The notes: generated by a model not told the origin, from the letters alone. A stretch of 58,260 nucleotides of DNA from Psammoneis japonica (GCA_008632985.1 QPGO01000314.1:1-58260); one strand, 5' to 3'; shown: positions 9,780 to 37,719, counted from the first letter of the stretch. Translations and numbers: made by a program.

Positions 9780-11079
9780 AAGAGAGTTTTCACTTTTGTT
9801 CAACGTTGACAAGGAGTCAACAAGGTCAAATTTTTTTGATGTGGCAGAGGCAATGTTTGGCTGCTCTGTTTGTTTGAGTGCAGAGAAACACATCTTGTTG
9901 AGCTGTGGGTCAGATTCTGTGGCAAGGGTGGTGGCAATGGAGTGACAGATTGCACCATTTTCCATTTGCCAACGGAAATTCTTTTTTTGAGGAAATGGAT
10001 TCCTTTTCCCAGAGCACACCATTTCTTGCTGTGCATCTTTTGTTTCTTTTGCCTCCAGCTGCAATGGCAAATGGCAGTGCTTGTCAGTCCTTTTGCGGGG
10101 CCCACACAATGTAAAATGCAGAAAAAGAGAAAGACAATTGCTGTGAGTGATGATGATCCTTTGTTTGCCATCAGCAAGCTGACCGCTGAAGGCAAGGACA
10201 GCGTTTTTGTGCAAGGGCAAGAGACGCCAATGCCACAATGAAGCAAAACAGCAAACTGGTGCAAAAAATGCGCGCACTTCTGAGCAGAGGAGCTGTTTGC
10301 CAAGTTGGCTTAAATTGGGTGCCAGTGCAATTGACAACCTGGATCTACAAAAGCAGTTGGCTGTCCCATGTCACACAATTTGCTTTGATGTCATTGGCAT
10401 GATGCGCGTGTGATGTGGCAAATGCAACAGCAAACAGCGCAATCTGTCACTCTGATGCACACCCCCCCCCTTGTTTTGGCATTGCAGCAAGATTCTCCAA
10501 GATTCCCTGGGATCTCACCACCTTTTGATGGGCTCTTCCACTGGAAGTGTGAGCTCCCGGGGAGCCACCGTGGGCGCCACTTTGTCGTGCATGTGCTGCA
10601 GACATGCACACAAATTTGTGCGTTGGCGCTTCCCCTCTCACACCTTTCTGTGCCTGCTGCATGCCAGGACATGCAGAGCCACGTGCACCCCCACGCAAAA
10701 CATTGCTCTGGCGTTGTGTCAACACACAAGCAACAGAGCATCTTTGAAGATGGCCAAGGCAAGTGCAGAAGCTTGCAAGGCCAACAAATGTGGTGGGCAC
10801 AATTGTGCGTGACCATGCACGCAACACAGTGTGGGTTGTTTGTCACTGTTGTGCCTCGTCACAACAAATGCGAGCCACACGAGTCATCTGGAGCAAAGGC
10901 CAAGGCCACAGCAGAGCCCTGTGTGCTCAAAACAAATGTGGCTGACTCGCTGTTGTTGTCCACATTTTCCCTCTCCTGTCACAAGGGGCTGCTTTGTGTC
11001 AGCACATCAGCCGTGGTCATTGCCAGCAGTGAGTGCAGCAAGCTGGCGGTCGTGGGGGGTGGGGAGGGCAAAAGCGCCC

Positions 11080-11471
11080 GACGCGCTCCAGGTCCAGGTG
11101 GGACCTCGTGCTGCTGAACTGTGACATCGACAGTTTTTTGAATCACGTCGTGTGTCGCACACGCAGATTTCTACGTGATTTTTTTGGCATTTTGTGTCAT
11201 TTTATGGTGCACTTGTTGAGCGATCCGTCCAACAACTTTTGACATTTTTTTGTTGCAGTGCGATTCTATGATGTCTTAAGAATCGCGCAGGGCAGGTGCG
11301 TTTGCAAAAACGTCGAGTGGCAAGAGGCACAATTGCACCACAAACTTGGCCGTTTGTTTGATGTTGAAGACAAATGTGTCCATCGATCAAATTCTTGCAC
11401 TGCGGAGCTCGCACGCAGAACTCTGCAGGCCCAATGTCGCACGGAGTCCCGCCTGGGGGCTGGAACGCGTC
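11080..11471. mobile_element. MITE (~390 bp), GAC...GTC TIR family, subtype A
   Basis: Imperfect ~26-bp TIRs (GACGCGCTCCAGGTCCAGGTGGGAC / GTCCCGCCTGGGGGCTGGAACGCGTC) and a 4-bp TSD GCCC. Homologous end-to-end to 48326-48714. Confidence 0.9.
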
Positions 11472-12582
11472 GCCCCCAAAAAGAGCTGCTGCACATCATC
11501 GCAATCAACACATTTTTGTTCTCCTCCCCTGAGCCCCATCAGGTGTTCATCCTCTCAAAAATTACCCTCGTCACCCGGGTTGTCCGCAAAAGGGCAAGGC
11601 AACTCCCCCCTGCCCTCGCCATTTTGGGAAACCCCAAATGGGCAAAACCAAGCTGAGCCCCCGCAACCAGCAGGTCAAGCTGTGGTGTCTCAGTGCTCTG
11701 TTTTGTTGCTGACCAATGGAGGTGTGTTGTTGGATTTGGGGCAAGGTGAGTGTGTGAAAATGGTGACTTTTGGCGATTTCATCAAATGACAGATTGAAGC
11801 AATCGAGATGGTCCGTCATGTCATGTCCGTCACCAGTCGGCCTGGTCAGTCTGCCCGTCATGCGTTGAGAGAAGCAGAACCGTTATTTGCAGTGATGCAC
11901 ACCATGACCGAAAATGCCCAGCCTTTCGTTTTCAGCCACAGGCCACAGGAAAAGGCAGCTCATTATTTCGACAGAACCTCATCAAGAGACACAATGTCCT
12001 GAATGGGTGAAAAACAAAAAGCCTCTGCTGCTGTAAATTGTGAACTTGGGGGCAGTGTTGTGCTTCCGAAAAATTGACTATGTACGACAAGAAAGAGCGA
12101 CTTGTGTCAGTGACCGTGTTCACGTAAATCATGCTTCAAAGCCCCCTGGGAAGTGTGCCATGGCATTCCACTGGTCGAATCTATGCATAAATTGACCTCT
12201 CAAACGGAGCTTCTCGGTGATGACCTTGTGTGTGGAGTGCATACGGTGTCGCGGATCTCTTCCTGCATAGCGAGCTACGGTAGTGTCGACATGCTCGTTT
12301 TGAAAAGTGCTTTTGCACTGGCTCTCTCTCTTCGACTGGATTGTTGTGCTGCAAGACACAAGAGCCAATCGCAAGAACTTTTTTCTCTCTGCGGAGAAAA
12401 CGACGCATTTTCCGTCGTTTGCGAACGCGAGTGTCATCACATGTACTGTACATACCACGTACCGCGTAGTTTCTACGCAGGCATGACTCGGGATCGCGAA
12501 ATAGTAAATGAGTTGTTCTCACTGTTCTCATACTTCTACACTGTACACAACATCAAAACCAGATTGATTGTCAACTGCCGTG

Positions 12583-14454
12583 ATGAATCATCGTAGAAAG
12601 AAATTGAAAAGATTGGAGAAACGTCTTGGTCGCCGTGGCAAGGAACGCCACGATGAAGGAGAAGGAGGCTTGTTGGAAGAACAGGCAACAGCAAGTTACG
12701 GTCTCGGCTCTATTATCAACGATATTCATGTTGACGAAGAGACTATGGAAGAGGAACAAAAGGTTGAAGAAACTGATGAAAGTAGTCCAGCATCTACCTT
12801 GACGGGTGCTCATGCAATGAGTCAACAAGGGGAGGTCCGTCGTGGTAGTGCACAAGCAGGTGGCGACGATGTTAGCCATGCCATTGTGTGTGACGTGGAG
12901 ACGGATCCCATGCCTCCTCCACAGCCAGTGCAGGGCAATGAAGCACTTCTTGTAGAAGCCCATTTAGTTGAACGGGCTGATAATGCAGAAGATGTGCGAG
13001 AACAAATGGCTACACTCGAGCAAGAAAACATGCGACTTCGAAATAAAGTTCCGCTAGTACAAGCCGAGGTCGCTCAAGAAAATACGAGAAGCAAGGGCCC
13101 TCGTCGCAAATGCTTGATTGTTATGGGTGTTACAGCACTTCTGATTACTGTGGCGGTTGTTGCTGGAGTTTCTGTCACTGGAGGCGGTGGCACGTTTCCG
13201 CCGATCCCCCCGCAGTCTCCAACATTGTCGCCCACTGTTCCACCCATGCAGTCTCCCACTAGACCCCCTATTACTGTCATTCCTGCTGATTGGATTCCCG
13301 CTGGTCAAATCTTGCATGGCAAAGCGGTGTGTGATTTTTTTGGCAGTTCTGTATCCTTGTCTCGTGATGGTCGTGTCATGGCTGTTGGCGCAACGCCGCA
13401 ATGTTCCAATCGCGGCTATGTTGGTGTCAATCGATACAATCCTGCCACCCATGAATGGATGCAAATTGGCCAAGAATTGATCGGACAAGCCGGCCTCGAC
13501 AATTTTGGAGAGTCTGTTTCGTTAAATGGCGACGGCACCATTCTTGCGGTTGGAGCTCCATTGAATGACAGTGGCGGAACGACAGCCGGTCAAGTGCGAG
13601 CGTATGAATACAACTCTGTATCGGATCATTGGGTCCAACTCGGTAGCGATATCCTTGGACAAGACTCCGGTGATGAATTTGGCATTTCCGTGTCGCTGTC
13701 GGACGCGGGAGACATTCTTGCCGTGGGAGCACACAGGGATGATACGGAAAAAGGTGTAAAGTCTGGTTCGGTTCGATTGTTTCAATACGACCGCGGCACC
13801 TCATCCTGGAGCCAACTCGGACAAACGCTGATTGGCCAAGCCGCTTATGATCATTTTGGCTTTTCCGTCTCCTTAAATGCGCTGGGAACCATTGTTGGAG
13901 TTGGAACAATTGTATGGGCTTCGAGTGACGCTGGCCAAGTGTCGGTGTATGAATACAATTCTACATTGGCAAGATGGGATCTGTTGGGGGATCCAATCAA
14001 ACGCCAAGATGTTGATGATTGGTTGGGAGACTCCGTTTCTCTTGACGACAGCGGTGTGATCGTGGCCGCAGGTGTGCCTGGAAGCAACCCGAGGGTTTTG
14101 GTTTATTCGTACGACCGCTCGACTTTGACATGGAATCAACGTGGCCAAACTCTCTTTTCACAACACCCTGATGATCTTGTTGGTTTCTCGGTGTCGTTGA
14201 GTGGAAATGGAAATGTCTTGGGGGTCGGAAGTGGAATGCGGGGTCAAGTTCGAATCTTTCAGCATGACAGCAATGCAGATGAATGGAAGCAAGTTGGCGA
14301 TCCTTTAAATGGCGAGGCTGAGCATGATGAAGATTTTGGACATTCCGTGTCCTTGTCGGCCGACGGAAGCGTCGTTGGAGTTGGCGCGCCCATGACTGAT
14401 GTCAATGGCGACAGGTCCGGATCCGTGCATGCATTCACGGCAAATGACAATTAG
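12583..14454 (+). CDS. Single-pass membrane protein with FG-GAP-like beta-propeller repeats (paralog 1)
   Basis: Intact ORF; ATG at 12583 matches the start of paralog 2. Acidic N-terminus, short coiled coil, one TM helix (LIVMGVTALLITVAVVAGVSV), Pro-rich linker, seven FGxSVSLSxDGxxLAVGA-type repeats. Confidence 0.88.
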   Translation: MNHRRKKLKRLEKRLGRRGKERHDEGEGGLLEEQATASYGLGSIINDIHVDEETMEEEQKVEETDESSPASTLTGAHAMSQQGEVRRGSAQAGGDDVSHAIVCDVETDPMPPPQPVQGNEALLVEAHLVERADNAEDVREQMATLEQENMRLRNKVPLVQAEVAQENTRSKGPRRKCLIVMGVTALLITVAVVAGVSVTGGGGTFPPIPPQSPTLSPTVPPMQSPTRPPITVIPADWIPAGQILHGKAVCDFFGSSVSLSRDGRVMAVGATPQCSNRGYVGVNRYNPATHEWMQIGQELIGQAGLDNFGESVSLNGDGTILAVGAPLNDSGGTTAGQVRAYEYNSVSDHWVQLGSDILGQDSGDEFGISVSLSDAGDILAVGAHRDDTEKGVKSGSVRLFQYDRGTSSWSQLGQTLIGQAAYDHFGFSVSLNALGTIVGVGTIVWASSDAGQVSVYEYNSTLARWDLLGDPIKRQDVDDWLGDSVSLDDSGVIVAAGVPGSNPRVLVYSYDRSTLTWNQRGQTLFSQHPDDLVGFSVSLSGNGNVLGVGSGMRGQVRIFQHDSNADEWKQVGDPLNGEAEHDEDFGHSVSLSADGSVVGVGAPMTDVNGDRSGSVHAFTANDN

Positions 14455-15263
14455 AAACAATGCATTTTGCATTTCATCCTTTTGCATGCATCAATCACTC
14501 TGTATTTTTTGTAGTTCATTTAGTTGCAGACTGTGCATCGCGTGCATTGTCAATTGTGTCAGAGCATTTTTCTCGCTTGTCGCTTGTCCAACCTGACGGA
14601 GTCTGTCTGTCTGTGCACTTTTTGAGACCTTCAATTCCAACCACGAACCATCGCAACTCTGTCGCTGAAACATCCAACACAACAAAACACAGCAACAGCA
14701 AATGAAAATGATTCCGGTGGAAAGAGTGTTGGTTGTGTGTGTTGAACCAGCAAGTCAGTGCCGCCAAAAGGGAATCCTGTGAGGCTTCCTGTGCTGCTCG
14801 TCGCACTTGCCTTGGTTTCTTGCAGTGGCTGTGGGTTGCCTGGAAGTTGTTGATGCAAACTTCAAACTTGCAATGTGACAGGTGCCCAGTGTGGCCAAAT
14901 GCAAAAATTGTGTGAACCAAATGATTCACTTCAAAGAGTGAGATGAACTGAAAGGTGAGAGAGATCGACAACGACAAGATGCTGATTGCAAGGAGTCGCG
15001 CCAATTTGATCGTGATGAGTCACCAAATCTGCCACATCAGGATTCACAGCATCTTTTCTTCAACTCATCTGGATTTCTTGTGTTTCCTGTGATCTGAGTG
15101 TTTGAACACACTCCTGCTGCTTGTGTTGATGTTCTGCTGACCAGACAGGTCCGGCTTGTCTTGAGGAGGGGAGATGGTGCTCCCTCTGTCTCACATCATT
15201 GCTGACATCTTTCAAATCGGCAATTCGCAAGCTGGAGCACTGTCCATTGTCAGAGCCATCAAT

Positions 15264-16420
15264 TGTCACAGAGACTCCAATGTGTCACAGGAGTGACCTC
15301 ACAAACTGACACCCCCACACACTGGGAGCATCAAAAGCCTGGCAAAACAGGTTTGAAGATGTTCCAGTGCAAACAGGCAGTGGTGTGAGAGCAATGAAAA
15401 CAGACAGCACAGAGAAAAGAACCATCAAAACACAATGCAGCAAACCTCTGAAACTTCAAAACACTTCCACAATGATGGATCAAAGAGCAAAGCATTGAGA
15501 TGCAAGGCAGGTGTCCGGGGTGGTGGCACAATGTCAAACCAGGAGGCCTGCCAGGATGGCAACAGGAGCGGCAATCAGGGGGGCAACCAGAACTGGCCCA
15601 ACTCAACTGGCAATTGGGAGGCCGGTTGGGACAACTCCAATCCATTAAAACATCTTTGCAGAGGATCTCATCTGGCTCACACAAATCTCACATTGGAGCA
15701 GCACCCCCCTGCAATGGGTGTGGCGTGTGACATTGGCAAAGAGCATGAGCAAGATGCAACAACAGAATCCTGGATCAAGGACTCACTTGCTCTGTCAAAC
15801 TCTTGCAAACCAAGCATGAAAACAAGATGACATTTGACCACAGCACCTCAATGCAAGTGCCACTGACACATGGGGCAATTGTCCGTGGTGTTCACACGTG
15901 TTGAGTCTCATGTGCATAGAAACAGTGTCACACACCACGCGATCTTTGGAAGATGAGGATGAAAAAGGTGCCAGTTGTTGCTGCAATGCATTTGATGCCA
16001 TTGCAGCAACCAAGCACACCAGCTCACATTAGAAACACTCAAGTGTGGCATTGGAAAACACGTGACAGTGGTGGCATTGCAAGACATCTGTCACTGCACA
16101 TGGCAAAGTGATCTGAAAGATGACTTGCCAGCACTGTGTCATCTGCAGGTGGAAACAGCACCACGTCCTGCACAGTCTTTGGTTCATGAAACAAAAACAA
16201 ATGTGCAAGAAGTGTGCAACAATTTTGAGGCCATTGCAATCAACAGAGCACCCAAGTTCACATTGAAAATGCTCAGGGGTGGCATTGAAATGCTTTTGCA
16301 AAAGAGGCTTGGTTGCGTGGGAAGGTTTCAGAGGTGCCATGTGTCAGCAGAGGTCAACGTGGGCTCACAACCTGGATGGTGGAGACTCCAATGCATCACC
16401 GGAGTGACCTCTTGCACAGA
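15264..16420 (-). mobile_element. Probable Copia-type LTR element remnant (LTR end plus PBS)
   Basis: GAGACTCCAAT...GGAGTGACCTC occurs at 15271, at 16382 and split at 44670/50362. On the minus strand at 16361-16374 it is followed by (CA)GGTTGTGAGCCC, resembling the Copia GGTTATG(G/A)GCCC PBS with TA->TG. 16185-16410 is homologous to 44077-44688. Confidence 0.5.
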
Positions 16421-17282
16421 CAAATTGTGTCGCCAAACATGTGTGATGCACCATGCACACATCCCACAGAACAGGCAAAGCAAGGTCTCTCTTTCTTGAC
16501 TTCTTCTTGCTGTCCTGATCTCATCAACCAGGTCCACAATCCAGCCATTGACTCTCTCAGGATTCAAATCAAACAACTCCACGCCATTGTGGAGCCACTT
16601 GTTCAACTGGTCTGCATGGTTGATGGTGTCATGGTGGAAGAATGATGCCAACTTCCTTGCATCACAAGTGATGCCATCTGTGTCCCTCATGAGCCCACAA
16701 TGACTCCCTGCAGTGTCCGGCAGACCGGGGCTTTCAATGAGCTTCACAAGGGGACAACACACCCCATCCTTGTCCATGCCACAGGCAGGAAAACAGATGT
16801 TCAACAACCTGGGTGAGATGTCAACATCACTCTTGTTGAGGGTCAATTGCAAATCATTGCCCATTAATCCAGTGGTGTGCTTTGCCATCATCAAGTTGTT
16901 TTTGAGACAACACAGCTCACCTTGCCTCCAGGCTTGGTGCCTCCCACAACATGACAACATTCCTTGGTCCTGTGTGCTCTGTCAGAACAACATTTGAACT
17001 CAGATGCTCTCCTTGGATCATCATGAATGGAGAAAATTGGTGCAGTGGTGGACACACACTTGAGTGCCTTGGAACTCCACAGTGGCAATTGCTTGAGCAC
17101 TCCATCAACTGGTGCCTGTTCTTCCATGGGTCTTGCCACAAACCCAAGGTTCTTGATCTGATTGGTGACAGAGAAATCAAGGTGCCAAATGATGAGTGCT
17201 CTAGACCACTTGCTGGCACACTCCTGATTGGTTTCCATCAGAGCAGTGCTTTTGTTGTGCTGACAGGGGTTGTTCTTGTTGG

Positions 17283-19990
17283 TTGGATGCCCCTGAACAT
17301 TTAACAGCCAACGACAGCCTTGCAGAGATCATCAGCTGTGTGAACAATGAGAAAGCCTTTGCAAACAAAGGCAGCAGCAAGAAGCAAGACAAGCAAAGGG
17401 AAAGCAATGCTCCTTCACCCCAATCTTCAAGACATTGTCATGGGAGTGGCAGCCAAGTGGATCCAGAGTCCAGGTGTCCGGCACACACCAATCATGACCA
17501 CAAGCGGAAGGGCTGTCAAGGTGGAGGCCAAAGCAATTGTCAAGGCAGAGGTTTGCAAGACCAAGGAGGTTGTGGCAACTTCCGAGGTCAAGGACGTGGT
17601 GTTTGTGGCAACCAAGGCAATTGTGGCAGCCAAGGTTGCGGCAACTGTCAAGGTCCCCAGAATTCTCAAGGTGGAGGATCCTGTTGTCAAAATCAAAATG
17701 GCGCACAAGCCAACCGTGACACCCAAGGCTGTAAAAATCTGGCTGGAGCAGCTCCTCCTGGTGACTGGCAAATGGAGTTGCACCATTTTGATTGAGAAGG
17801 GCCTCATGAGTTGTGAGGTGGAAATGGGTGCAACCAAGGTGGTTGTTTCCCTCCAGCCAGCAAGCATTGCATGTGTTGTTAGATTCAGGAGGCACTGACA
17901 CCCTTGTGCATTCTCATGTTTCACCCAAGGGAGCCAATCCAACTGTGAATGATGAGGGGTGGCTGAGTTTTCAGACAGCAGCTGGGCATTGTGAATCATC
18001 CCAATGTGCCATCATGAAGAATCTGGTGCCACCCGCATTTGACAAGTCCAAACAAGTTGATGGCATTGCTGCTCAAGCTTTTGACTCTCCGTGCAAACAT
18101 GATGTGAGACATTGAGCCAAGAAGGCTGTCTTTCCAAGGCCAGCACAACACTTGATTTTTGGTTTGGAGTCATGAAGTGGTTGGATGATTTGATCCCAAT
18201 GAAGCAACCCAATCATTGGAATCAAGTTCATGGCTGGTTGGATGTGCTGGACAACCACAAAGAGGATGAAGATGATGAGGACCTCCAGGGTCAAGCTTTC
18301 ATCATGCCAGATGTCAAGTGTGAGAGAAGGTGTCAACTGTGAAAGTGACACAATTGCAAACTCATTTGACCCAGGACCAACGTGACAAGCTTCACACCAT
18401 GCTTGAAAAGCACAAAACCCTCTTTGATGGGACGGTTGGCAAACATCTGCATGAAACCAATTTTTGGAAGTTGATCCTGGTGCCATTCCCTTTCACTCTA
18501 AAGCCCACAAAGCACCAAAGAGAGATGAGGCTGTTTTTAAGAAGGAACTGCACAACATCTTTGCAACGTTGGCACACTGGAATCAGCAGGACCAACAGAG
18601 TGGGTGGCCGGAACCTTCCCAACACCCAAAAAGGATGGACAAGTGGGATGTGTGTCCAACTTCCAAGAATTGAACAAGGTGCTCAAGTGGAAGGTGTCCT
18701 CCACACAATTTACACCAACAATTGGGGTGCAAGTTTTTAACCAAACTGGACCTCACCATGTTCTGCTGTCACATCGAGCTTGACAAAGAATCCAAGGATT
18801 TGCATGCTGTTGTTGCTCTGCTTGGAAAGTTCCAACATTGTCAACCAGCCATGGGTCTGAAAACTTCTCCCAACATTGCTCAAACTGTCATTGAGAAAGT
18901 GTCAAACAAACTTGATGTCAAAGCTTGTGTTGATGACATTGCTCAATTTGATGACTTGTTTGACACTCACATGCAGCACCGACTTGACAAGTTGCAGTCC
19001 AGACTGGAAGAGAATGACCTCAAGGTCAATCCACTCAAGTGTGAGTGGTGCGTCCAAGAGACGGATGTTCTGGGTCATTGGCTCACACCTGCAGGAGCTT
19101 GACCATGGAAGAAAAAGGTCAAAGCAGTTCTGCAGATGCAACCTCCTCAGAATGTGATGCAGCTGCAATCTTTCATTGGTGCAGCATCCTGTTGTCACAA
19201 CATGTGGCCTCATTGCTCTCATGCACTTGCTCCACTTACAAAGTCAACCAGCAAGAGCAAGTTGGAATGGACCCCAGAGTGTCAGAAAGCCTTTGAAGAC
19301 ATGAAAACATTGATGTTGGACAACACCCTTTGGGTCCACCCAAACCACAACAACTCCTCCAACTGTCAGATGGGTGCAGCGATCATGCAAGAAGGGAAGC
19401 CGGCAGCACATTGGTCTCAGAAGCTCAGTGCAGTGCAGCAAAATCACTCCACTGTTGAGAAAGAGCTCCTTGCTGTGGCAATGTGTTGCAAAGAATTCCG
19501 CACCATGTTGCTTGGGGCTGATTGTGCTGTTTTCACTGACCACAAAAACCTCACCTTTTGTGTGCTCAACTCTCAACAAATGCTCAGGTTGAGACTCTTT
19601 TTGGAGGACTTTGCTCTGACCTTCAAGCATGTTGACAGCAAGGATGACTCAATGGCAGATTGTTGTTCCCAATTGCCTTGCATTGAACCTCCAATGGAAG
19701 GAAATTGTGCTCCCAATCAGGGCAAATTGATGGATTTCAAGGCAATTGACACTGCCACACCACCTCATGAAGAGAAACTTGACAACCCAGATCACGTGTC
19801 TTGTTTTTCCTTTTGTTGTGAAGAACCATCTCATTTCCACTCCTCCTTTGTTGATGATCCTGATCTGTGTGAATCATTTTTGAACTGTCCCTCACTTGAC
19901 AAAATGCAAAATCCCACAACCATGCAGTCAATTTAAGAGCACCAATTTGTCGACATGGAATTGAGTGACATGCAACACAACAAAACACAA
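17283..19990 (+). mobile_element. Ty3/Gypsy retrotransposon relic (gag end, protease, RT, RNase H; integrase not seen)
   Basis: Protease LLDSG (~17880); RT KFLTKLDL...AMGLKTSPNIAQ...CVDDI...LKVNPLKCEW...LGHWLTP; RNase H QMGAAIMQEGKP...EKELLA...FTDHKNL...MADCCSQLP. Many stops and frameshifts. Confidence 0.9.
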
Positions 19991-20049
19991 AACCCAAATT
20001 CATTTTTTAAGGTGCTGCCACACTTCTGCTCTGCAACTCTGGCAAACAA

Positions 20050-23000
20050 GCTAACCCACACCCCCAGTGCACTTAACTGTGGCAGGGGAATGCAGCAATC
20101 AGCCAAGATCAGCCATCACCATCAGGGGATGCCACGCCAAAGCAACTTGCAACAGTGCAAGTGCCAAGCAAGGCCGGTCATTTTGCCTTGTGAATGCTTG
20201 ATTTAAACACAGGTCCAACAATTGCCAACCAATTGCAAAGATGGTGGGTGGAATGGGAAAGGTGTTCATCAACGGAGTCAAAAAGAGCTGCTCAATCTTT
20301 GGCCAAACGGTCATTTGAACAAGAGTGAGTGGCCTTGACCTCTGCCTCTGTGTCATGACATTGTGCCAATTTGCTGGTTTCTGAATCATGTGCGTGAGTT
20401 GATTCATTGTGTTGATCCCACAATGCCTGCTGTTGAGACCATGTGAAGTTGCCAATGGTTGCTGCTCAGTCAACTCTAGAGATGTCACAGTCCAAACTTT
20501 CAACCTTTTTCAAATGCATGAGGTGCACCCTGTTCCAGCAGGCAGAGAATCAGCCATTGAAAATGAGCCTCCAACCAATCTGTTCCTGTGCATGAAATTT
20601 TTCCAAAATGCTGTGGTGAAGCTTGTCAGCACAGACTGTGTCTTCAAGAAACCAAGCCTCTGATGCAGCAAGCAGAAAGTTGCACATGGGAGGAGAAGTG
20701 TGAATGTCATCACATTTCTTCTGTAAACCTTGAAGGAAGGCACAATGCCATGCTTCATTGTGGGGGCACCACAGGATGTGGTCTCCATCCTCCATTGGAT
20801 GCTGGCAGTGAATGCAACAATCAGGTCTGATGGGATTGCACCAGCGGGCAACAAATCCTGCACCAGTTTGATGGCACTCATTTTTTGAGTGATGTTTTGT
20901 GACACAAGTTTAGAGTGCACCGGCCCATCAATGAGTTGGAATGCTTCATCTGTCCAAGTGCACTTCTCTTTCATGTGTGCAAGAAGAACTGGAAATGAGG
21001 CTTTGCATTGAAGTGCCGGTTTGAACTTGGAGTGCACGGAAGCATTTTGAACAGTGAGGTTGACGGAGCAGTGTGGCACATGAGGAGCAACCGACACAGA
21101 CCCAGGACATTCCCCTTGATGTTGACCTGCAATGCGGTCAGCTCAAACACTCAACTGTGCTGGAAGATGCAAGGATTTGCAGGGAACATTGTCATCTTGA
21201 TGGCACTTGATCCAGTGAATCACAACCTGTGTGCATGATTGCTTGGAGTGGAGAGAGTCAACTGAGTGGAAAATTTCATTCAATGTGTCCCAATCTGCTG
21301 ACACAGTGTCAGCAGCATGAGATTGATGGCAGCAGTCATGTTGCACATTGGAGGGATTGTCTTCTGTGGAGATTGGGATGGAATGGAAGTTGCTCTTGCA
21401 TTGCAAACAACAGCGGAGTTGTTGCAGCATGGGTCCATTCCCTGTGACAATTTTGTCTGACAAAACTCCATCACTCTGAGAACAAACAGAAGAAAGGAGA
21501 GCATCCCATGTGCCTCTGCACAGCAAGATGATGGGCCACAGTCAAATGCTGGACCAGCACAATCGACTGGGATGTTTCTGTCAATCACAAGCATCCATCT
21601 GAAGGTGGCATTGAAGCCAAGAACAGACCTGTCACTTGCTGCTGATGTGTGGTGAAGCCCAAGAATCTCTGCCAGTTTGAAACTGAACATGTTGAGGGAG
21701 ACCTTCACAAACAAAGATGATTCACACAGAGGCAGGGACCATGGCCAGTCTTGAAAATCAGAGGGGACAGAAACCACAGGAGACAGATCAAACAGGGAAC
21801 CGATGCCTCAGATGCGCCATCAACTGTCTTCAATGGTGCCAACCATGACTGGTGATGCCAAGGGGGACAAATCAAGAACAGTCTCAAGAGGATCAATGAC
21901 AGGAGCAATGCCACGGGTTGCTGGGAAGATTTGAAAGCCTGCCAGAGATCTCATGTGTAAACATCCTTTGACTGGTTCATCGTGCACAGGAAATTTCATC
22001 CACATCTCTGCAGACAGGATGGCCAAGAGCCCAATGGGCTGCATGACTCTAGATCCTTTCCTCTGCTGACAACACTGCAAAACCGCTGCCACTGTTTCCA
22101 GGCATGTGAGGACAGAAGAGCTTGTTCCACCAGGTTCAACATGGATGAACTGCTTGAGATGGAGGGCTCACCCAAGAACATTTGACGATCCAAAAACTGG
22201 CCATCTGGCAAGGCCACACCAGAAACGATGAGGATGTTGAGGCAAAGGCAGCAGCAATTCACCCAGCGCATTTGTCAATGGGAGAACATTCCCAAGTCTA
22301 GAACCACGTCCATGATGTGTTGATTGTTGTTTCACTGGAGGGGAAGTGCACCTGAGTCATCCAAATCAAAACATGCATCCACTCTGGACAAAAACAATCA
22401 GAGAGACATGAACCATTTAGACTCAGAGTGAAGCAACTTGGGATGAACATCTTTCAGGAAGCCAACCCCCGTGCTGAGATGGAACTGGATCCATGAAACC
22501 CCAACATGAGGCAACATTGCGGGCTGGCCAATCCCACACCAGTTGGACAGAAGCTGCGCCACTTGACCAATGCCTTGTTCCACATCTGAGGACCAAAATC
22601 CACCACCACTGAGAATGCAACAAGGGCCAAAAAGGACGTCCTAATTGGCACTGCAATCATGCCTGCATTTGGCAAATGTTGTGCACACAGCTTTTTGTTG
22701 AATCTCGAGAAGCTCCTTTGGAGCAAAATGGGAATTTGGGAGAGCACACATCACACATGCTAAATGGCAAGCAAAATGGGGAGCACAAGCTTTGCTGCTG
22801 TCGAGGGAGCAAGATCAGAGAAAGAGAGCAATGTCATCACTCTTTTTCTCAAGGGCTTCACAGAGAGTTTTTTGTGAACCTGCTGGAGACTTGTGGTGCC
22901 CTGGGGTCATGCGGGACATGTGGGCAGATGACTGAACACTGGACCAGGAATGTGGTTGATTGGTGGAGGAAATGTCAATGATGATGGCATCATTGCATGC

Positions 23001-26000
23001 GCTGAGGTGTGGTTCTCCATCTTCCATGAAGTGCCATTCAATGACATTGTCTGAACATTTGGGTGGCTCCACCACAACTGGTTTTTTCCTCCTGCATTTT
23101 GAAAGCCAGGTCTGACACTGAAGGTTGAGGAGAGGTGCAGTGAAATTGTTGGCTTGCTTTGAGGTGTCGTCCACGCAACCCCGGTTGCACATCATCATGG
23201 AAACAGAATGGTTTGGGGACTCAAAGAAAATGCCATGGGCGTGTTGGTCAAATGTCTCTCAAAGAGGCTGTTGCAGATGTGATTCCAACAAAAAGGGAGA
23301 ATTGCCACTGCCCTGACCATTGCCACAAATGGGAGATTCAGCGGAGTGTGAGCATGACGATTGGGACAAACCGACTCCTGTTTTCAACCAGCAGTGTGCC
23401 TGTTGCAGAGTGCAATTTGCTGTCTGAGCAACTTCCTTTAGCATGCCATTGCTGCAACTCTCAAGAGCAGCTGGCACCAGAATGTTGCAATCACAGCAGG
23501 AGGTGCAGCAGTCATCACTGTGAACAGCCATTTTCTGGGAAACCCAACTGATTTCAAGCACAAGTTCTTCTGGGCACACTGGGGCATTCACATTCAAAAA
23601 GGAGTGAGTGCCACATGTCCCAGGGTTGCAGAGCTTCCATTGCTCCATGTTTTGTGCCAATGACTGCCACATGACACTTGAAATCAATTGAAAGTCGGCT
23701 TTGTAGATGTGGATGACATGCAAACGGCAAATCTTGGCATTTTCAGCCTTGTCAAAAATCACAACATTGACGATGTCTTTTCATCTGTTGCATGAGTGCC
23801 CCCAGTGTAGAGTGTAACTCAAAAGGTTCAACCTCATTTGAGTGAGTGTGCATTGAGTGGTGCCAAGGCACTCATGGTCTTCTGCAGGGTTGCCATCAGT
23901 GGTGGTGGCATTGGAGTGGGAGTGAGCAGTGCACATGGCTTTCCAATGGCCAACACAAATGCTTGAGGAGAACTGCAACAGATCTCTGTCCAATCTCTCA
24001 GCCAGTTCATGATTTGGGGCATCAAGTTGTAAAAGTGCATTTGTTCTTGACAGGAGATCTTGGCTTAGAAGCATGGGGGGCAATGGCATCAAGGCAGGTG
24101 GTCACCTGTGGTTCAGAGGATGAGACCATGTTGCGATGACTGGCCTTTGGCAGGTTGATGGTGGGATTGCCAAAAAGTGCCACAGCGTCAAAGTCAACAC
24201 AGTGAGCATGATGATCTGAAGCAATTTGACAGCCAAAAGCCTCACAGCCTCCAAATTGAGCTGCAGCCAAAGCACCTGGAGTTGCAAGCACACAATCTAA
24301 TCTCTTGGAACCTGGTGTGTGCACAGAAAATTCTGTGTCTCCCACAAGCTGGAGAGTGGGACATCTGATGAGTTGAATCTCTGTGCAAGGTTGGCAAGAT
24401 TCTCTGTGTTGACCATGAAGTCAGTGCTCAAGTTGCCAAAGATGACAACTTCTCTGTTCTGATCTGCTGGGAACTCCTGGAGCAAGCAACACAAGTCTAA
24501 ACAGAAAGCTTTGTGCGGGTTGACCGCACTGTTTCCTTGTTGACATAGAAGCACAGCCTGCTGGGTGCTTGCAGTGGTCCTTCTGGGGGCATTTTGTGGC
24601 TGTTGGAGCACACGTGGCAGCACAAAACAAACATTGTGACCTGCAGTCCTTGCTTCCCATCAAAACCTTGGACAGACCAGTGACCCAAGGGGTCCAATTC
24701 CTGGCTGCAATGCTGTGCCGCAACGGAATTCCCCAACAGAAGTGCAGCACTGCCTGGCTTGCAAGGAGTGGCAAAGGCAGTGGAGCTGCAAGAGAAGGTG
24801 CTGCGGCTGTGATTCATGATGTTCTGAACAGCAGAACGGCGTGGTGACAGCATTTCACATTGGGTGGTGTCCAAACAGACCTCCGACATGCCAACCACAT
24901 CAGCTTGACTCTTGTTGGCAACCTGGCAGCTGCATTCAAGAACATCTCCACCTCTCTTGTCAAATTTGCACCCATTTGCATTGAAAGCACATGATCTTGT
25001 GCAGTGTGGAAGCTTCGGATTGAGGGCATCACCAGTTGGTTTGTTCTGTTAGAGGCAAGAGAAGTCAATGCAGTGGTCAGTGGGAAGGCTGCACCTGTTG
25101 CCATCTGGGAGTGACTGCCAAGCTTGTGAGGAAGGATCTTGACAACCTTCTCTGTTCATGGTTGGGCCGTGCTCCTCCCAGAAGAAGACTGAGGCTCACA
25201 TGACACAGGCAGAGATTGCAGCCCTGGCAGTCTTGAAGTTGACACCGTTGACAAGAATGTTGTGACAGCCATTGGCAAAACTAGAGGGAAAAATCTCTTG
25301 AACACTTTCAAAGCCTTGAACTGTTGATCAAAATAAAACATCATGTCCAGAGAGGTGCAAAGGAGTGGCACCACACAAGTGTTGTCATTGCGGTGGGCCT
25401 GGGATTTAACAGCATTGTAGAAGGAAAGGGGAGAAATGTGATGGGTCTTGGCCACAACAACATGGGTCGGAAGCTTGTTGGATGCACAAAGCAGGACTTT
25501 GCCGGCAGTGTGGCAGTCATTTTGTTGCACTTCAATTGCGAAGTTTTGGTGCAAAGAGGAGCGGCAATGTTCTTGTTGTCTGTGCAAACAGAAGTGGGAG
25601 CCAACCAGAACTTTGTTTTCTTGACCTTGAATTTGCCCAAATCACTGAGGAACATTTTGTTGGCTTCATCAATGGGAGTGTGTTTTGTCACTGCAGCAAT
25701 GCAATGAGCCAGGTGCACTGTGTTGAGCTTTCTTCATGGAGTTGCCAATGGCAGGAACATGTGCAGGACAACTCCCTGTTGCCATCATTGGCAACAATGC
25801 CGGGTGGAACTCATCAACGTTGTCCAAGGAAACCAGAGCTGCATCTGGAACATCCTTGGCCGCCATCCCCAAGGATGGAGAAGCGTTTTTGAGGTCTCTG
25901 CCAACAAGAGGAGGGATGACATCATCCTCCAAGAATGAGTCCACAGCACTGGCAGAAGGGCCATTAGAAACCTGATTCACATTGGTGGCTGTGGACAAAT

Positions 26001-27400
26001 CCACAATTTTTGCTGGCAGTGCAAGGTCAAAAAACACCAAATCAAAACCACAGGTTGGTTGCAAACATCAACAAACAAACAATCTAGCTTGTCAAATGAT
26101 GAAAACTTGGAAGACACACCAGTGGGGCCTTTGCCTTCAGCAAAGGAAAGAGCATCAGATTTTTTGACAAAATCAATCAACTCTTTGTGCTTTGCCTCCA
26201 GAAGGCTGTGCAAGTTAGCCACATGAGGCTTTTTGCATTTGGCGTGGGTGCGCAACTGAACCCACAAATCAAGAAGAAGGAACACACATGCTCCTCAGTC
26301 TTTGACTCAGGCAACTTCTTTGCCAAGACAGGAATGGCAGGAGGCTGACAAGGGTTGCTGGAGATGACGAGCATGCCTGGCTTCTTGCAGACTTCAATTT
26401 CATCTGCTGTTGGGTCAGGAGGCAACTCAGGCTTCTCAGCAGGAGATGCAGTTGGAGCAGGAAAATCCGGTGCATGCTCAGATGCCATTGAGGTGGCATC
26501 AGACTTCTCTGTGAGAGCTGGCAAAGTGCGCACTTGCTTCCAAAGGTTCCTGGAGGGCCATTGCCAATGTTGGTCTCCAAGTCTTGAATGGACTGGTTTG
26601 TCAGATGCTTGGAGATGTCAAGATCCCTGATGCTGACATCTTGCAAAGTGCAAACAGCTTCACAACATTGGGGGGTGCCGCCAAGCTGAGCATGTTTGTG
26701 GCAATTTCACAGGTGTTGCCATTGCTTGCAATCTGCTGCTTCCCAATCTCACCAAAAGCAACAGAGTGGCAGTGGGCAAGCTGCTGCCAGATGGTGTTGT
26801 CAAAGTTCTTGACAAGAGCGCTGAATGCAAACCTGAAGTTGCTCAAGGCTGCAATGACGTCTGACGAGTCCTGGACATGACCATGAGCATGCAAGACAGA
26901 TTTCTTGATTGACTCTGTGGTCATGGTTTTGAAGTCAGCACTGCTGCACTCCTGCCCTTCCTCAATGATCTTGGTTTGTTCCAAAGTGTCCATGAGCAGA
27001 GTGAGAAAGTCAAGCATGTTGATCTTGGATAAAAAGGTCATCACAGATGCATTTGGAGGTGCGTCCGCAAACTTGAAGCAGCAAATGCCATCAGCAAATG
27101 CCTTGTTGATGCAAGCAGGGCAAAGAGTGACTGCTTGATTGAAGACATTCATGGTCTTGATGCCATTGAGGGTGGTGGCAGCAATCTCATCAATGAGGCA
27201 AGCCTTCTTGGTCTCACTCAATTCTTGGAGGGCCTCAACAAAGACTTGCTTGAGCTGTCCCAGTGTGACAGCATCAGATCCCACTGCCTTGTGGCAAAAC
27301 ATGAAAGAAAAACAAGCCTGGATGTCAGCAGCTCTCTTCTTGAGGTCCTTGTCCATCTTGGATTGGGTGCCTTGACTTGGACAGTGATGGGAGCTTGTGC
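20050..27400 (-). mobile_element. Non-LTR retrotransposon (LINE; APE-RT-RNase H-Zn knuckle, Ambal-like) relic with putative ORF1 upstream
   Basis: APE motifs (SEVCLDT, CKPGS, DPLGHWS, GSKRLDC, SDHH) at 24100-24900. RT motifs (KICRLHVIHIYKAD, PICGNGQGSGNSP, GCVDDT) at 23100-23760. RNase H (SSCCAEAHG, HWIKCHQDD) at 21180-21650. EDGDHILWC at ~20780. Ends and ORF1 (25150-27400) are approximate. Confidence 0.85.
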
Positions 27401-28620
27401 GGCAGTGCCAGGAGCTTGAGCAGCATTTGTGGGATGGAGCAACGTGAAGCAGGTCAAAATTTTTGACAAACGGAAAGAAATGGAGGGAAAATGAGGCTCT
27501 GTCCTAAGAGATTTGAAATCTCTGAAAGTTGTGGTTGTGATTTTTGCACAAAAAGCATGGGGTGTGCAGATGATCTGCTGGTTGCATCAGGAATCAAACA
27601 TTTGTGGGAACTCCCGGATCCAAGAGATGTGTCTGGAGATGTGCACAAATCAGCATCAGAGTTCATTGTGGATTTTTGGTGGTGGTTTTTGAGAGAATGT
27701 CATCTCTCAAACAATTGAAGATGGAACATCATGTTTGGAACATGACACAGCATGAAGTTTTTTCATGTGAAACTGTTGCAATGGTCAGAGTGTGCTCACA
27801 TGCATGGATGCACAGAGGGCAGACATGAGATCTGAAAACTGCAATGGCAGAGAAAAAAGAGAAAAAGGTCCGGCGCACAGGGATTTGTGGAGCAACCTGA
27901 CAGTTGCAGAACAATGAACCCAGACAGTGTCAGGCCATTTTCATGATGTGCTCACGCTCTGATGTTGAGATCAGACAAAACGAGGTGGATTGCATGCAAT
28001 CTGGATCAACTGGTTTGCGGAGATCATCCGAGTTCAGCATGATCAGAGAGGGCGTTTGCAGTGGCAAGAGCATCCCAGCCTGCCAAAACAAAATGCCAAA
28101 CTGCACTGTTTGCATTCTGACAGAACGAATCAGAAAAATGGCAAGAGCGGCGCAGGCAATCGCCTTGGCTTGCAGAGCACATGTCTGGATCCAAGAACGA
28201 TGGCTGATTCATCATGGTTTTGCAGGCTGATCAGGACAATCAAGCCAATCCATGGGTCAACTGGCGCCATGTGCAGCTTGTGGGCGATTGTGCAAGGCAT
28301 GCCAGCATGCAGAAACAACGCTTTCAGCATTGTCAGGTCGACGCAACTGATCCCATCACCGGTGATCCACCAAACACAATGAGGGGAACTGGGGCGGCCT
28401 CTCATCATTGTCCATCTGTCTGTCTGCCTTTTGCTGCACGCTGCTCTCGCGCAGTGAAAACTCCAAGAGCGCGGCTGCCCACAAGGTGTTTTCTCCTTGT
28501 GGTGAGCCTGCTGTCTTGGCTCCAATGTCCCTGCTCATGCACAGAAACGCGCAGCAAGGTCCTGAGCATTTTCGATGGCACAGAACCTTGCCACGGGTTT
28601 CTGTGCCCATTTGCGACAAA

Positions 28621-29380: not shown

Positions 29381-31231
29381 ATGATGAATCGTCGCAACAA
29401 GGCCTTCAAAGCACCAGAGAATAGTTTTGGCCGTGGCAGCAAGGGAGGCCACGAAGAAACAGAAGAAGTGCAAGAGGACTTGGAACAAATCCAAGAAGAG
29501 CAAGAACAAGAACAAGCACGATCGAATGTTGCTTTTGCCGCTTACAGCACTTCTCATGTGGTCGAGGAGAATCAAGAAGAAGCTGAAGAAACAACTCCGG
29601 CATCTGCCTTGGCCGGTGCTTTTGCAGTGAGTCAACAAGGGATGGTTCGTCGTGATCGTGGACGAGCAAGCCGCGATAACACTGGCATCAGCGTTTTGTC
29701 TGACTTTGGGACAGTACAATCTGAACCCATGATGCCGCCTCCACCGCCTGCACAAGACGATGACACACTTCTTGTAGAAGCCCATTTAGCTGAGCCGGAT
29801 GACAATGTAGAAGATGTGCGAGAACAAATGGCTACACTAGAACAAGAAAATATGCGTCTTCGAAATGAAGTTCCGCTGGCACAAGCTGAGCCTTCTCAAG
29901 AACGTGCGAGCAACAAGGTCCGTCGTCGCAAATGCTTTGTTGTTCTGGGAGTTGCAGCACTTCTGATCACTGTGGCGGTTGTAGTTGGAGTTGCTGTCAC
30001 TGGAGGTGGTGGCGCTTTTCCGCCGTCAACGCTTGCGCCTGCTAATTGGAATCCAGTTGGTCAAGTCATGCACAATGGAAAAGTTTCAAGTCATAATTTT
30101 GGGAGCTCCATCTCCTTGTCCCGTGATGGCAGTATCATGGCGATCGGAGCAGGTAGCCTTGTCTCTTCCGGCTATGTTATTGTGCAACAATACAGTCCAA
30201 GCACCCAACAATGGATGCAAATTGGCCAAGAATTGATTCTACAAGCCGGCGGTGACAATTTTGGCAATTCCGTTTCATTAAATGGTGATGGAACGATTCT
30301 TGCTGTTGGAGCTCCGTGGAATGACAGTGGCGGAACGACAGCCGGTCAAGTGCGAGTGTATGAATACAACTCTGTATCGGATCATTGGGTCCAACTCGGT
30401 AGCGATATCCTTGGACAAGACTCCGGTGATGAATTTGGTATTTCCGTGTCGCTCTCGGACGCGGGAGACATTCTTGCCGTGGGAGCGTCGGCTGATGAGA
30501 CGGTAAATGGTAAACGGTCTGGTTCGGTTCGATTGTTTCAATACGACCGTGACTCCTCATCCTGGAACCAACTCGGACAAACACTCATTGGACAAGCTAC
30601 TGCTGATTATTTCGGCATTTCCGTTTCCTTGAATGCGCAGGGAACCATTGTCTGTGTTGGAGCGTATTTTAATGATTCAGGTTCAAATGCTGCTGGTCAA
30701 GTGTCGTCATATGAATACAATTCTGCCTGGTCAAGATGGGACATGTTGGGCGGCCCAATCAATGGACAAGTCGTAAATGCCAAGTTTGGATATTCTGTTT
30801 CTCTTGACGACAGCGGTTTGATCGTGGCCGCGGGTGCACCTGAAAATGACGAGAGGGTTTTGGTTTATACGTATGACCGTTTGACTTTGACATGGAATCA
30901 ACGTGGCCAAACTCTTTTGACGCAACAGCCCCACAATGGTTTTGGATGGTCAGTGTCGTTGAGTGGCAATGGAAAAGTGTTGGCTGTCGGTAGTTTGTAT
31001 CACAGCGTCAATGGATCGATCTATGGCCAAGTCCAAATCTTTCAATACAACAGCAACACCGCCATATGGAATCAGTTTGGTGATCCTTTAAATGGTGAGG
31101 CAGAAAATGATTATTTTGGATATTCCGTGTCCTTGTCGGCAGATGGAAGCGTCGTTGGAGTTGGTGCTTATGGAGCTGATGACGATGGCGAATCTTCTGG
31201 AACCGTGTATGTATTTACATCGAACAATTAG
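29381..31231 (+). CDS. Single-pass membrane protein with FG-GAP-like beta-propeller repeats (paralog 2)
   Basis: Intact 616-aa ORF collinear with paralog 1: AGAFAV and LVEAHL motifs, TM helix, seven FGxSVSL repeats, normal Tyr content. Confidence 0.9.
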   Translation: MMNRRNKAFKAPENSFGRGSKGGHEETEEVQEDLEQIQEEQEQEQARSNVAFAAYSTSHVVEENQEEAEETTPASALAGAFAVSQQGMVRRDRGRASRDNTGISVLSDFGTVQSEPMMPPPPPAQDDDTLLVEAHLAEPDDNVEDVREQMATLEQENMRLRNEVPLAQAEPSQERASNKVRRRKCFVVLGVAALLITVAVVVGVAVTGGGGAFPPSTLAPANWNPVGQVMHNGKVSSHNFGSSISLSRDGSIMAIGAGSLVSSGYVIVQQYSPSTQQWMQIGQELILQAGGDNFGNSVSLNGDGTILAVGAPWNDSGGTTAGQVRVYEYNSVSDHWVQLGSDILGQDSGDEFGISVSLSDAGDILAVGASADETVNGKRSGSVRLFQYDRDSSSWNQLGQTLIGQATADYFGISVSLNAQGTIVCVGAYFNDSGSNAAGQVSSYEYNSAWSRWDMLGGPINGQVVNAKFGYSVSLDDSGLIVAAGAPENDERVLVYTYDRLTLTWNQRGQTLLTQQPHNGFGWSVSLSGNGKVLAVGSLYHSVNGSIYGQVQIFQYNSNTAIWNQFGDPLNGEAENDYFGYSVSLSADGSVVGVGAYGADDDGESSGTVYVFTSNN

Positions 31232-31289
31232 ATTTGTATTTGCATTTCATGATTTTGTCTCTTCCGTTGATTATGTTTGTTGAAAAATC

Positions 31290-31646: not shown

Positions 31647-31727
31647 CTAGCGCCCGATGCATGCAATCACATTGAGAAAATAACAACACTTCCACATATA
31701 CTCTAAAATAACAACTACTACTGTTCT

Positions 31728-35680: not shown

Positions 35681-37578
35681 CTAATTGTTCGTCGATGTAA
35701 ATACATACACGGATCCCATATTTTTGCCATGGACATCAGTCCAAGGCGCACCAACTGCAACAAGACTTCCGTCTGACGACAAGGACACTGAATTTCCAAA
35801 TCCGCAAAACTCAGTCTCGCCATTTAAAGGATCACCAAACTGATTCCATTTAGTCGTGTTGCTGTCGTATTGAAAGATTCGGACTTGGCCCGCCTCGGCT
35901 ATTCCATCAAGGCAATGATAACGACTTCCCACAGCCAAGGCATTTCCATTACTACTCAAAGACACTGATCAACCAAACCAATCATCGGGCTGTTCCGTCA
36001 AGAGAGTTTGGCCACGTTGATTCCATCTAGACGTCGAACGGTCATACAAAAAAACACGGACGCTATCGTTGCCTAGACCTAAAGGTGAACCTACGGCCAT
36101 GGTCAAACCACTATCGTCAAGAGAAACAGAACATCCAAACCCACCACCTTCAACTTGGCCTTTGATTGGATCACCCAGCAGCTCCCATTTTGAAGAAGCA
36201 GAATTGTATTCATACACAGCCACCTTGCCAGTATCATTATTTCCACCCGAATACTCATGATACGCTCCAACGCCAACTATGTAGCCCGAGCGGCTCAAGA
36301 AACGGAAGCACCATATTTATCACCACCACTTTGACCAAAGAGTGTTTGTCCGAGTTGTTTCCAGGATGAACTGCCGTGGTGGTATCGAAACAATCGAATA
36401 GATCCACAATTTGCGCCATGTTCCGGTTCATCCCCAAAGTCTCCTACAGCAAGAATGTCTCCTGCATCCGAGAGCAACACGGAATCACCATATAGATCCA
36501 ATTGGTTTTTCCAGGAATATCGCTGCCGAGTTGGACCCAACTATTCAATGAAGAGTCGTATTCATACACCCGAACTTGACCGACATACCGACCACCACTG
36601 TCAGTCCATGATGGAGCTCCAACGGCAAGAATTGTGCCGTCACCATTTAACGAAACAGACTCGCCGAAACCGTCATGGTCGGTTTGTCCAAATAATTTTT
36701 GGCCAATTTGTGCCCATTTTCGGGTGTCAGGATTGCATCGTTGCACAACAACACTGCCGGGATTTGAATTGTCGAAATACGTAACTGGCGCTCCAATGGC
36801 CATGACACTGCCATCATGAGACAATGACACCGAATTGCCAAAATTATCGCCTATCGCTTTGCCACGCAAAACTTGACCAACGGGATTCCAATCAGCAGGA
36901 ATGACTGTAATCGAATCAGGTGCAATCGAATCGGTTTCACTGTTACGGCCGAACGGAATTCCAAGTGCAATTGCCACAATGATTACAAATTGTACAATTC
37001 CCATGCAAATCAAGCACACACAATAATGGCGCTTTTCCCTTGCACTTCCTAAAGCAGTCCCCGCCAAACCCTCAACCTCCCGTTCTTCCTGAGCAAGTTC
37101 AGCTTGAGCAAGCGGGACGGCCTTTCGAAGAAACACGTTTTCTGCTCGAGTCTACATCTTCCAGAGCTTCTGTTGGTTCAGCCACAAGAGCTTCAACCAA
37201 TAGCGTCCTTGCATCCCGGCCGGGTGGTGGTGGAGGCATGGGATCCGATTGTGCCGTTTCCAAATCAGATGCAATGGTGATGCAAGTGTCGCCGTCGCAT
37301 GCTTGACCGCAACGGACCTCCCCTTGTTGGTTCACCGCAAAAGCACCGGCCGTTGCAGATAGAGGAGCAGCGACTTCATCGACTTCTTCTACCTTTTCTT
37401 CTCCCTCATGCTTTTCATCTACGAGGATGCCGTTGGCAGAACCAAGAGCACACTTTGATGCTTGATCTTGTGCACTTTGTTCCAACAACCCTTCTTCTCC
37501 TTCTTCATGCCCGTCCTGACTTCTACCACCAAGACGTTTCTCTAATGCTTTCATGACCATGTTGCGACGATTCACAAT
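35681..37578 (-). pseudogene. FG-GAP-like membrane protein paralog 3, pseudogene
   Basis: Collinear with paralogs 1 and 2 but split over five ORFs (37099..37596, 36444..37136, 36295..36540, 35969..36298, 35681..35965). It has frameshifts, an in-frame TGA (WFG*SVSLS), and ATT GTG where paralog 2 has ATG ATG. Confidence 0.9.
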
Positions 37579-37719
37579 GGCGATTGATTCAATCAACTTT
37601 GATGTTGCTTTCTGTTTTCTGTATAATAATGATGTGAGAACATGCGAAAGGAGAACTCGTTTCGTTTTCTCGCGACATCCCAGTCAAGTCATGTCTGATG
37701 ATGTCTGCGTAGAATTTTA

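Follow-up and report, generated by a model that had tools for sequence, protein, structure and literature searches.

TA loss in transposon blocks probably extends into the 3' ends of neighbouring FG-GAP genes in the diatom Psammoneis japonica

Does a process that strips TA dinucleotides (TpA) from transposons also alter the host genes next to them? The question is raised by p1, a gene of the FG-GAP family located in a 58,260-nt stretch of the Psammoneis japonica genome (GCA_008632985.1, QPGO01000314.1:1-58260; the window below) and followed by a block of decayed mobile elements with almost no TpA. A preliminary description of the window had proposed that mutagenesis spreads from such elements into flanking genes, as in the last ~250 bp of p1 several Tyr and Val residues of two paralogs, p2 and p3, are replaced by His and Ala. 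At the level of the gene family, we consider spill-over of TA loss into gene 3' ends beside the blocks highly probable. For p1 the picture differs from the one proposed: a region-targeted DNA mutator, extending beyond the transposon by a few hundred bases, is the likely, though far from certain, source of two substitutions, Tyr615His and Val619Ala. As a single locus, p1 exemplifies a real, little-described process only weakly; the family data moderately support a reach of some 150 coding bases.

The window, which corresponds to G000:C315:1–58260, is an alternation of gene-rich DNA, where the observed-to-expected ratio (o/e) of TpA is mostly 0.3–0.9, and blocks with o/e of 0.00–0.15 and raised CA and TG. 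Among 547 1-kb bins of fetched DNA, 224 are classed as desert (TpA o/e <0.15) and 211 as normal (>0.4), the balance in desert bins being –34.8 TA, –29.5 CG, and +31.7 CA and TG per kb. In the transposon blocks of this genome about 90% of TA steps are gone, to TG or CA. The block 3' of p1 contains remnants of reverse transcriptase and RNase H at 18674–19933 (PF00078, E 9e-13; PF17917, E 5e-17). A search of G000 with positions 14455–15700 yielded 51 matches, most of them starting at 14740, and this first interspersed repeat is probably LTR-like (long terminal repeat), judging by its terminus. It is separated from the p1 stop codon by 285 bases, of which ~200 are conserved host flank, so that p1 does lie upstream of a desert, as had been described, but not immediately next to a transposon.

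The mutator follows chromosomal position, not repetition. A 400-base repeat retains its TAs in normal surroundings, including copies that are 95% identical, while in four close copies inside blocks 14–21 of ~25 TAs are gone, with no changes in reverse; the copy at 11069–11474 has lost 21 of the 25 TAs of a less-mutated copy, also with none in reverse. This repeat may serve as a natural reporter of the mutator. The effect is confined to mobile-DNA regions, plus host flanks and three of the 53 FG-GAP genes analysed below. Differences between haplotypes include 13 TA-type and 26 CG-type changes among 47 isolated differences in the repeat-rich region 38–51 kb, compared to 3 and 5 among 54 in the gene-rich region 32.7–37.7 kb, which indicates that the process is recent and occurs in DNA.

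The FG-GAP family has at least 163 matches in the genome, of which the 62 best-scoring copies were analysed; dropping 6 near-identical copies left 56, and excluding 3 that remained unclassed, 53. The class was set by DNA 250–1000 bases past the stop codon, that is, outside the tested alignment, and 27 of the 53 examined copies have a TpA desert there (adjacent genes), the other 26 being non-adjacent. Converted TA sites within the final 150 coding bases number 44 of 99 for adjacent genes against 14 of 92 for non-adjacent ones (P = 1.6e-5); for the first 100 flank bases the counts are 72/96 and 35/88, respectively. No class difference is seen in the three bins more than 300 bases from the stop codon (27/93 vs 17/73, 13/58 vs 6/56, 12/49 vs 8/51; P 0.13–0.48), and in the zone where TA is lost other contexts are flat (AA>AG 7/146 vs 7/151; TT>CT 3/213 vs 5/212). 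The difference in the last 150 coding bases is also observed when genes are classed by CpG loss instead (35/80 vs 15/93) and when three wholly converted genes are left out (32/87 vs 14/93, P = 0.001). A test of direction based on nearest neighbours was discarded: all 24 focal genes chose one of four young TA-poor siblings, which created a spurious upstream excess of reverse changes, and for this reason we used reference-free TA density. The latter (per 100) is 2.65 in adjacent vs 3.52 in non-adjacent genes in the last 160 coding bases (P = 0.009) and 3.34 vs 5.92 in the first 100 flank bases (P = 0.0003), with no difference in four upstream bins (P > 0.5).

The farther a gene lies from the CpG-poor edge, the lower its conversion (Spearman –0.38, P = 0.004, 55 genes). 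Independent support is provided by the tandem duplicate L068/L103, where 28 of 36 TAs are gone in the 661 bases upstream of the gene, none in reverse, the loss rising from 1/5 at the far end to 15/15 beside the block. Within the clade of p1 the counts are 20/50 vs 7/48 (P = 0.006). Several observations, however, weigh against spill-over. The coding test is based on four columns only, and the distance trend is non-monotonic (0.52, 0.43, 0.19, 0.44, 0.17). When the clade of p1 is collapsed, with one of five young siblings retained and one converted gene and one fragment removed, the counts become 16/46 vs 5/31 (P = 0.12; flank test, P = 0.16). The independent-pairs test yields just 2 supported pairs, though adjacency changes at least 15 times on the tree, and 6 of the 27 adjacent genes are without any coding conversion.

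The residues on which the preliminary description relied are indeed present: IFQHD, FGHSV and SVHAFT in p1, IFQYN, FGYSV and TVYVFT in p2, and IFQYD and SVYVFT in p3 (with FGNSV at the second site in the latter), and so is the quoted letter change, GTGCATGCATTCAC in p1 vs GTGTATGTATTTAC in p2 and p3. Considering ungapped positions of p1 at which TA is shared by p2 and p3, we observe CA in p1 at 4 of 6 sites in the terminal region 14263–14452, with TA kept at 14306 and 14452; in the central region 13270–14110 TA is retained at 8 of 9 sites, again as described, the remaining one being TT. This three-way contrast was discarded as a test of leakage, as the 3' end of p2 and the whole of p3 come from other subfamilies, and it reflects mostly an outgroup effect.

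The sites were compared, instead, with the 10 nearest paralogs of p1 and with the 26 paralogs that have no downstream TpA desert (Table 1). In the supported clade of p1 (26 copies) CA at 14263 is found in 21 copies, of which 11 are adjacent and 10 non-adjacent; His560 is not a consequence of the insertion at 14740, though it may go back to earlier activity of the same mutator, with fixation in the ancestor of the clade. CA also prevails at 14432 (9/10 nearest and 18/26 non-adjacent paralogs) and at 14436 (9/10 and 17/26). Hence, at three of the five proposed sites, His560, Ala616 and the Phe codon, the supposed products of leakage occur in paralogs without a neighbouring block. The idea that transposon mutagenesis enters flanking genes is supported at the family level and in the graded flank of the tandem duplicate, but not at these three sites, and the proposed reach of ~250 bp is reduced in coding DNA to about 150 bases. 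The lesson of the p1 locus is that two paralogs are too few controls.

Table 1. Features of the p1 locus and related elements of the window (positions counted from the first base of the window)
Feature	Position	Strand	Basis or state
400-base repeat with inverted ends, 5' of p1	11069..11474	.	occurs in normal and desert surroundings
FG-GAP paralog p1, 622 codons	12586..14454	+	open reading frame call; PF14312 E 3.5e-26
His560 (IFQHD)	14263..14264	+	inherited subfamily state; CA in 8/10 nearest, 13/26 non-adjacent
Leu codon, TA kept	14306..14307	+	TTAA, most resistant context
His586 (FGHSV)	14341..14342	+	hypervariable, uninformative; TA in 1/10 nearest; CA in 4/23 adjacent, 4/26 non-adjacent
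Candidate leak product 1, TA>CA, Tyr615His	14428..14429	+	TA in 7/10 nearest, 20/26 non-adjacent; 312 bases to repeat edge
Ala616 and Phe617 codons	14432..14437	+	family majority states
Candidate leak product 2, TA>CA, Val619Ala	14441..14442	+	TA in 9/10 nearest, 17/26 non-adjacent; missed by the preliminary description
Stop codon TAG, kept	14452..14454	+	read directly
Host 3' flank of p1	14455..14739	+	paralog homology to about 14654; partly converted
Block of decayed mobile elements, TpA-stripped and mostly CpG-poor	14522..28500	.	TpA o/e 0.00–0.15 in 28/28 500-base bins of 14501–28500
First interspersed repeat 3' of p1, probably LTR-like	14740..15254	+	copies begin sharply with TGTTG
Paralog p2, control of the preliminary description	29381..31231	+	3' end of a different subfamily; likely mosaic
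Paralog p3, control of the preliminary description	35681..37587	–	frameshifted, internal stop; outside the clade of p1

The changes private to p1 are those at 14428 and 14441 and four in the first 80 flank bases (14485, 14517, 14527 and 14534). An explanation that we find unlikely, but that has to be taken seriously, is that no leakage occurred at p1, its 3' end carrying inherited subfamily states and two ordinary transitions, and p2 and p3 simply belonging to another subfamily. This fully explains 14263, 14432 and 14436, and for the remaining two sites the evidence from p1 alone is not significant, with 2 of 4 informative coding sites converted against a background of 0.15 (P = 0.11), a level observed at conserved TA sites even away from blocks; 2 of 9 p1 sites far from the block are converted as well. 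Leakage at p1 is also disfavoured by the susceptible TAs at 14503 and 14512, which are retained in spite of being nearer to the repeat than 14428, and the data contain no p1 allele without the transposon: positions 1–29 kb have no counterpart in C2:458–584 kb, where the best p1 sibling is 76% identical and itself lies beside a block. On the other hand, ordinary transitions do not account for the four further conversions in the flank, for the lack of any change in reverse over 14428–14534 relative to the nearest non-adjacent paralog of p1, for the coincidence of the p1 changes with the context-predicted GTA>GCA, or for the family-level excess located exactly in the same zone. On balance, leakage is still the probable cause of Tyr615His and Val619Ala, with less confidence than for the family as a whole. 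No leak is seen at the 5' end of the coding region (compared to L049, 3 TAs are lost and 4 are in reverse; further upstream, 5 vs 3). A read-derived contig (run X1) covers 14359–14848 with 0 differences at depth 30; it probably comes from the source sample, and so its exact match excludes assembly error only. Among the reads listed none joins across the repeat edge, and the listed differences stem from contigs of paralogs.

Three FG-GAP copies are converted along the whole propeller region (L082:3930–5110, where the stop codon reads CAG, L057:1874–3000, and L048:3015–4203). In these genes TA is changed at 23 of 25 sites, compared to 17/146 for AA>AG and 6/169 for TT>CT, and both strands are affected (13 TG and 10 CA). 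The fate of TA depends on its neighbours: survival in the 224 desert bins relative to the 211 normal ones is 0.002 for ATAT, 0.009 for GTAT, 0.31 for TTAG and 0.52 for TTAA. Direct hit rates by the 3' base, in which related copies are counted repeatedly, are 59/133 for T, 51/137 for C, 43/140 for A and 17/92 for G. Both datasets agree on pyrimidine over purine after A, and this context rule explains why p1 has kept TTAA and TTAG and changed mostly to CA (GTA>GCA).

What kind of enzyme could act in this way? Transitions only, the 5' T, the TAY optimum as in TadA editors, and the same proposal made for the alga Bigelowiella natans lead us to favour an adenine deaminase, tentatively, with a little less than even confidence in this chemistry. 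The block would be silenced, CpG-methylated chromatin recruiting a deaminase of the TadA/ADAT2 type; the A of TA would be deaminated on transiently unpaired DNA, yielding inosine, read as G, and a fuzzy edge of the domain would result in partial conversion of the neighbouring gene. One TadA-like (L115) and one ADAT2-like (L118) frame have HxE and PCxxC each, and genes of the TadA/ADAT type are universal and would be present in any alga. Two points speak against the deaminase: its candidate genes (TadA-like, ADAT2-like, and two PF02137 loci) look housekeeping, with none tied to the process, and in the direct hit rates the 3' preference is modest and A ranks higher than G, in contrast to the survival ratios. 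A further, rather doubtful extension is that diatoms have an endogenous TAY-preferring base editor of this type aimed at silenced transposons, whose fuzzy edge would be a stop-free diversifier of the 160-member surface-protein family (Tyr to His or Cys, Val to Ala), older rounds such as His560 being fixed as subfamily signatures.

The leak could be real and still have another chemistry. If TA palindromes in silent chromatin carried a modified base, either oxidised thymine or methyl-adenine, this base could mispair or deaminate; we regard it as a fairly unlikely source. Similar to CpG, TA is palindromic and affected on both strands, and the restriction to one dinucleotide is tighter than in engineered TadA, for which CA and GA are substrates too; but TA survival is close to the product of two independent single-strand terms, by arithmetic on survival ratios, and TA>CG double changes at coding sites are not raised (3/108 vs 5/102).

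Less probable still are error-prone repair patches, of the polymerase eta type, begun at damaged methyl-CpG of the transposon and extending into the flank. Their expected length agrees with the reach of a few hundred bases, and TpA and CpG loss do covary (Spearman 0.77, 547 bins), the former extending past the latter: 32 desert bins have CpG o/e >0.7, while no CpG-poor bin has normal TpA. The younger Copia-type element at 2672–9779, whose open frames are long and whose TpA o/e is mostly 0.0–0.3 at a CpG o/e of 0.7–1.0 (a 93% copy lies at C2:521–528 kb), also suggests that TpA is lost before CpG. Such an order makes CpG deamination a less likely trigger. Moreover, polymerase eta causes A>G at WA motifs, AA included, with transversions, whereas in the wholly converted genes AA is nearly spared, and there is no increase of transversions at TA (9/108 vs 9/101).

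Relaxed selection, under which the neighbours of transposons would be silenced or decaying and would accumulate all mutations, TA loss included, is an improbable explanation. It would fit the loss or displacement of the stop codon, seen in 3 of the 27 adjacent genes and in 0 of the 26 others, the slightly higher CG>TG/CA of adjacent genes in two bins upstream (P ~0.02), and the in-frame loop deletion in p1 near 14240. Nevertheless, for the other kinds of transition there is no difference in the last 150 bases, the effect is positional within the gene, and open frames are equally common beside blocks and away from them (19/27 vs 16/26). At the Leu codon 14306 the silent product, TTG, outnumbers Ser TCA 22 to 1, compared to 10 to 11 for TTAA in mostly non-coding copy comparisons; together with the open frames, this silent excess shows that selection still acts on these genes. 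Mutation triggered by homology, as in repeat-induced point mutation (RIP) of fungi, and directed at the FG-GAP family itself is very improbable and already largely refuted: the size of the family and the three wholly converted members would agree with it, but gene bodies show no effect at distances above 300 bases from the stop, and young near-identical gene copies retain their TAs, as do repeat copies of 95% identity located in normal surroundings.

The consequences for the genes are likely mild. Under the genetic code, no stop codon can arise by TA>TG/CA, though one can be lost, so the neighbours would be diversified rather than destroyed, unlike in RIP, and the suggestion that leakage could kill surface proteins finds no support in the proportions of open frames. 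Residues equivalent to position 615 in six other blades of the propeller are G, R, R, S, L and R, and His615 is therefore likely tolerated. Mild diversification of neighbouring genes is plausible, and where diatom genes lie near repeats, Tyr>Cys/His can be mutational, which may affect the trees and the ratios of nonsynonymous to synonymous substitution rates (dN/dS) built on them.

The p1 protein has an acidic N-terminus, a single hydrophobic stretch (by-eye reading of the translation) and a C-terminal beta-propeller, and both FG-GAP_2 (PF14312) repeats above cut-off and the propeller fold are present. In the AlphaFold model of residues 234–622 (389 residues) the mean predicted local distance difference test score is 94.4 and 28 strands are formed; the closest fold match is the integrin alpha-X propeller, with WD40 proteins scoring nearly equal. 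The family thus resembles other FG-GAP_2 beta-propeller proteins in its 28-strand propeller, similar to the integrin-alpha head, and differs from FG-GAP_2 proteins generally in being an expanded diatom family with a hydrophobic stretch N-terminal of the propeller. A surface location of these proteins may be surmised from their sequences. The protein search with p1 yielded no close orthologue, the best homologs being 31–44% identical and mostly bacterial or unnamed. At 14232–14241 p1 is short of ~8 loop codons that most paralogs hold, with the frame kept, and over ~200 bases at 13544–13740 p1 and p2 are near-identical, compared to 78% overall, which is likely a gene-conversion tract.

Outside this locus, window positions 32703–58260 are likely an allelic haplotig of G000:C2:536100–561820, with identity of 98% rising to 99.8%, while 30097–34286 has 86% identity to C2. 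The FG-GAP cluster is structurally different between the haplotypes. For a neighbouring Hook gene, the named homologs among the matches listed are all from diatoms. G000 has 27 PF00145 matches, and the cytosine-methyltransferase frames L088, L089 and L090 (G000:C301, C297) lie inside TpA deserts with o/e of 0.07–0.10, possibly as cargo of mobile elements.

The geometry of the process agrees with RIP leakage. In the AvrLm6 region of Leptosphaeria maculans the mutation load of unique DNA scales with nearness of degenerate transposons, each allele having 4–6 stop codons, and a leak of at least 930 bases in Neurospora is cited in the same paper (PMC2973834). A gradient into adjacent unique DNA is present here as well, becoming weaker after relatives are collapsed. 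The base change is the opposite: RIP is C>T (CpA>TpA), makes stops and lowers GC, whereas the diatom process is A>G at TpA and makes no stops, and RIP-type CA>TA and TG>TA are not raised next to the blocks, where TpA is lost, not gained. RIP is also triggered by duplication, and the diatom process is tied to position. The diatom process resembles RIP leakage in its operation, yet is distinct from RIP, two of whose defining features it lacks. RIP also depends on a methyltransferase of the RID type and on a sexual phase. A RID-related methyltransferase, DNMT4, is reported from diatoms with function unknown (PMC9998398). TadA-derived adenine base editors convert A>G on DNA best at TAY, CAT, GAC and GAT also being promoted motifs (PMC10879117); as described there, they are engineered, guide-targeted and edit non-TA contexts too, and their likeness to the diatom process is in the motif only.

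The closest known system is TpA hypermutation of integrated viral DNA in B. natans, observed de novo in 186-kb and 25-kb inserts, at a rate about 1000-fold above background and intermittently among lines; transposon domains are over-represented among its TpA-poor coding sequences, and ADAT2 was proposed, as a hypothesis (2026 preprint, 10.64898/2026.01.13.699255). According to the main text of the preprint, the two algae share A>G/T>C only at TpA, on both strands, regionally and against the usual AT bias. They differ in that B. natans is a rhizarian with viral inserts mutated de novo, while in the diatom the process is deduced from standing variation, and here we observe few-kb transposon blocks, near-complete TA loss and paired CpG loss. 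The main text makes no mention of leakage, flanks, neighbours, diatoms or polymerase, and no 3' context rule is seen in it. In our literature search, with most subscription papers outside its scope, there was no diatom report of a TpA mutator and none of its spread into host genes. As far as these sources go, a TpA-specific A>G mutator has been known in one rhizarian alga. If it is a shared eukaryotic defence, the P. japonica genome offers a context rule pointing to the enzyme class, a measurable reach, and a gene family as the ruler.

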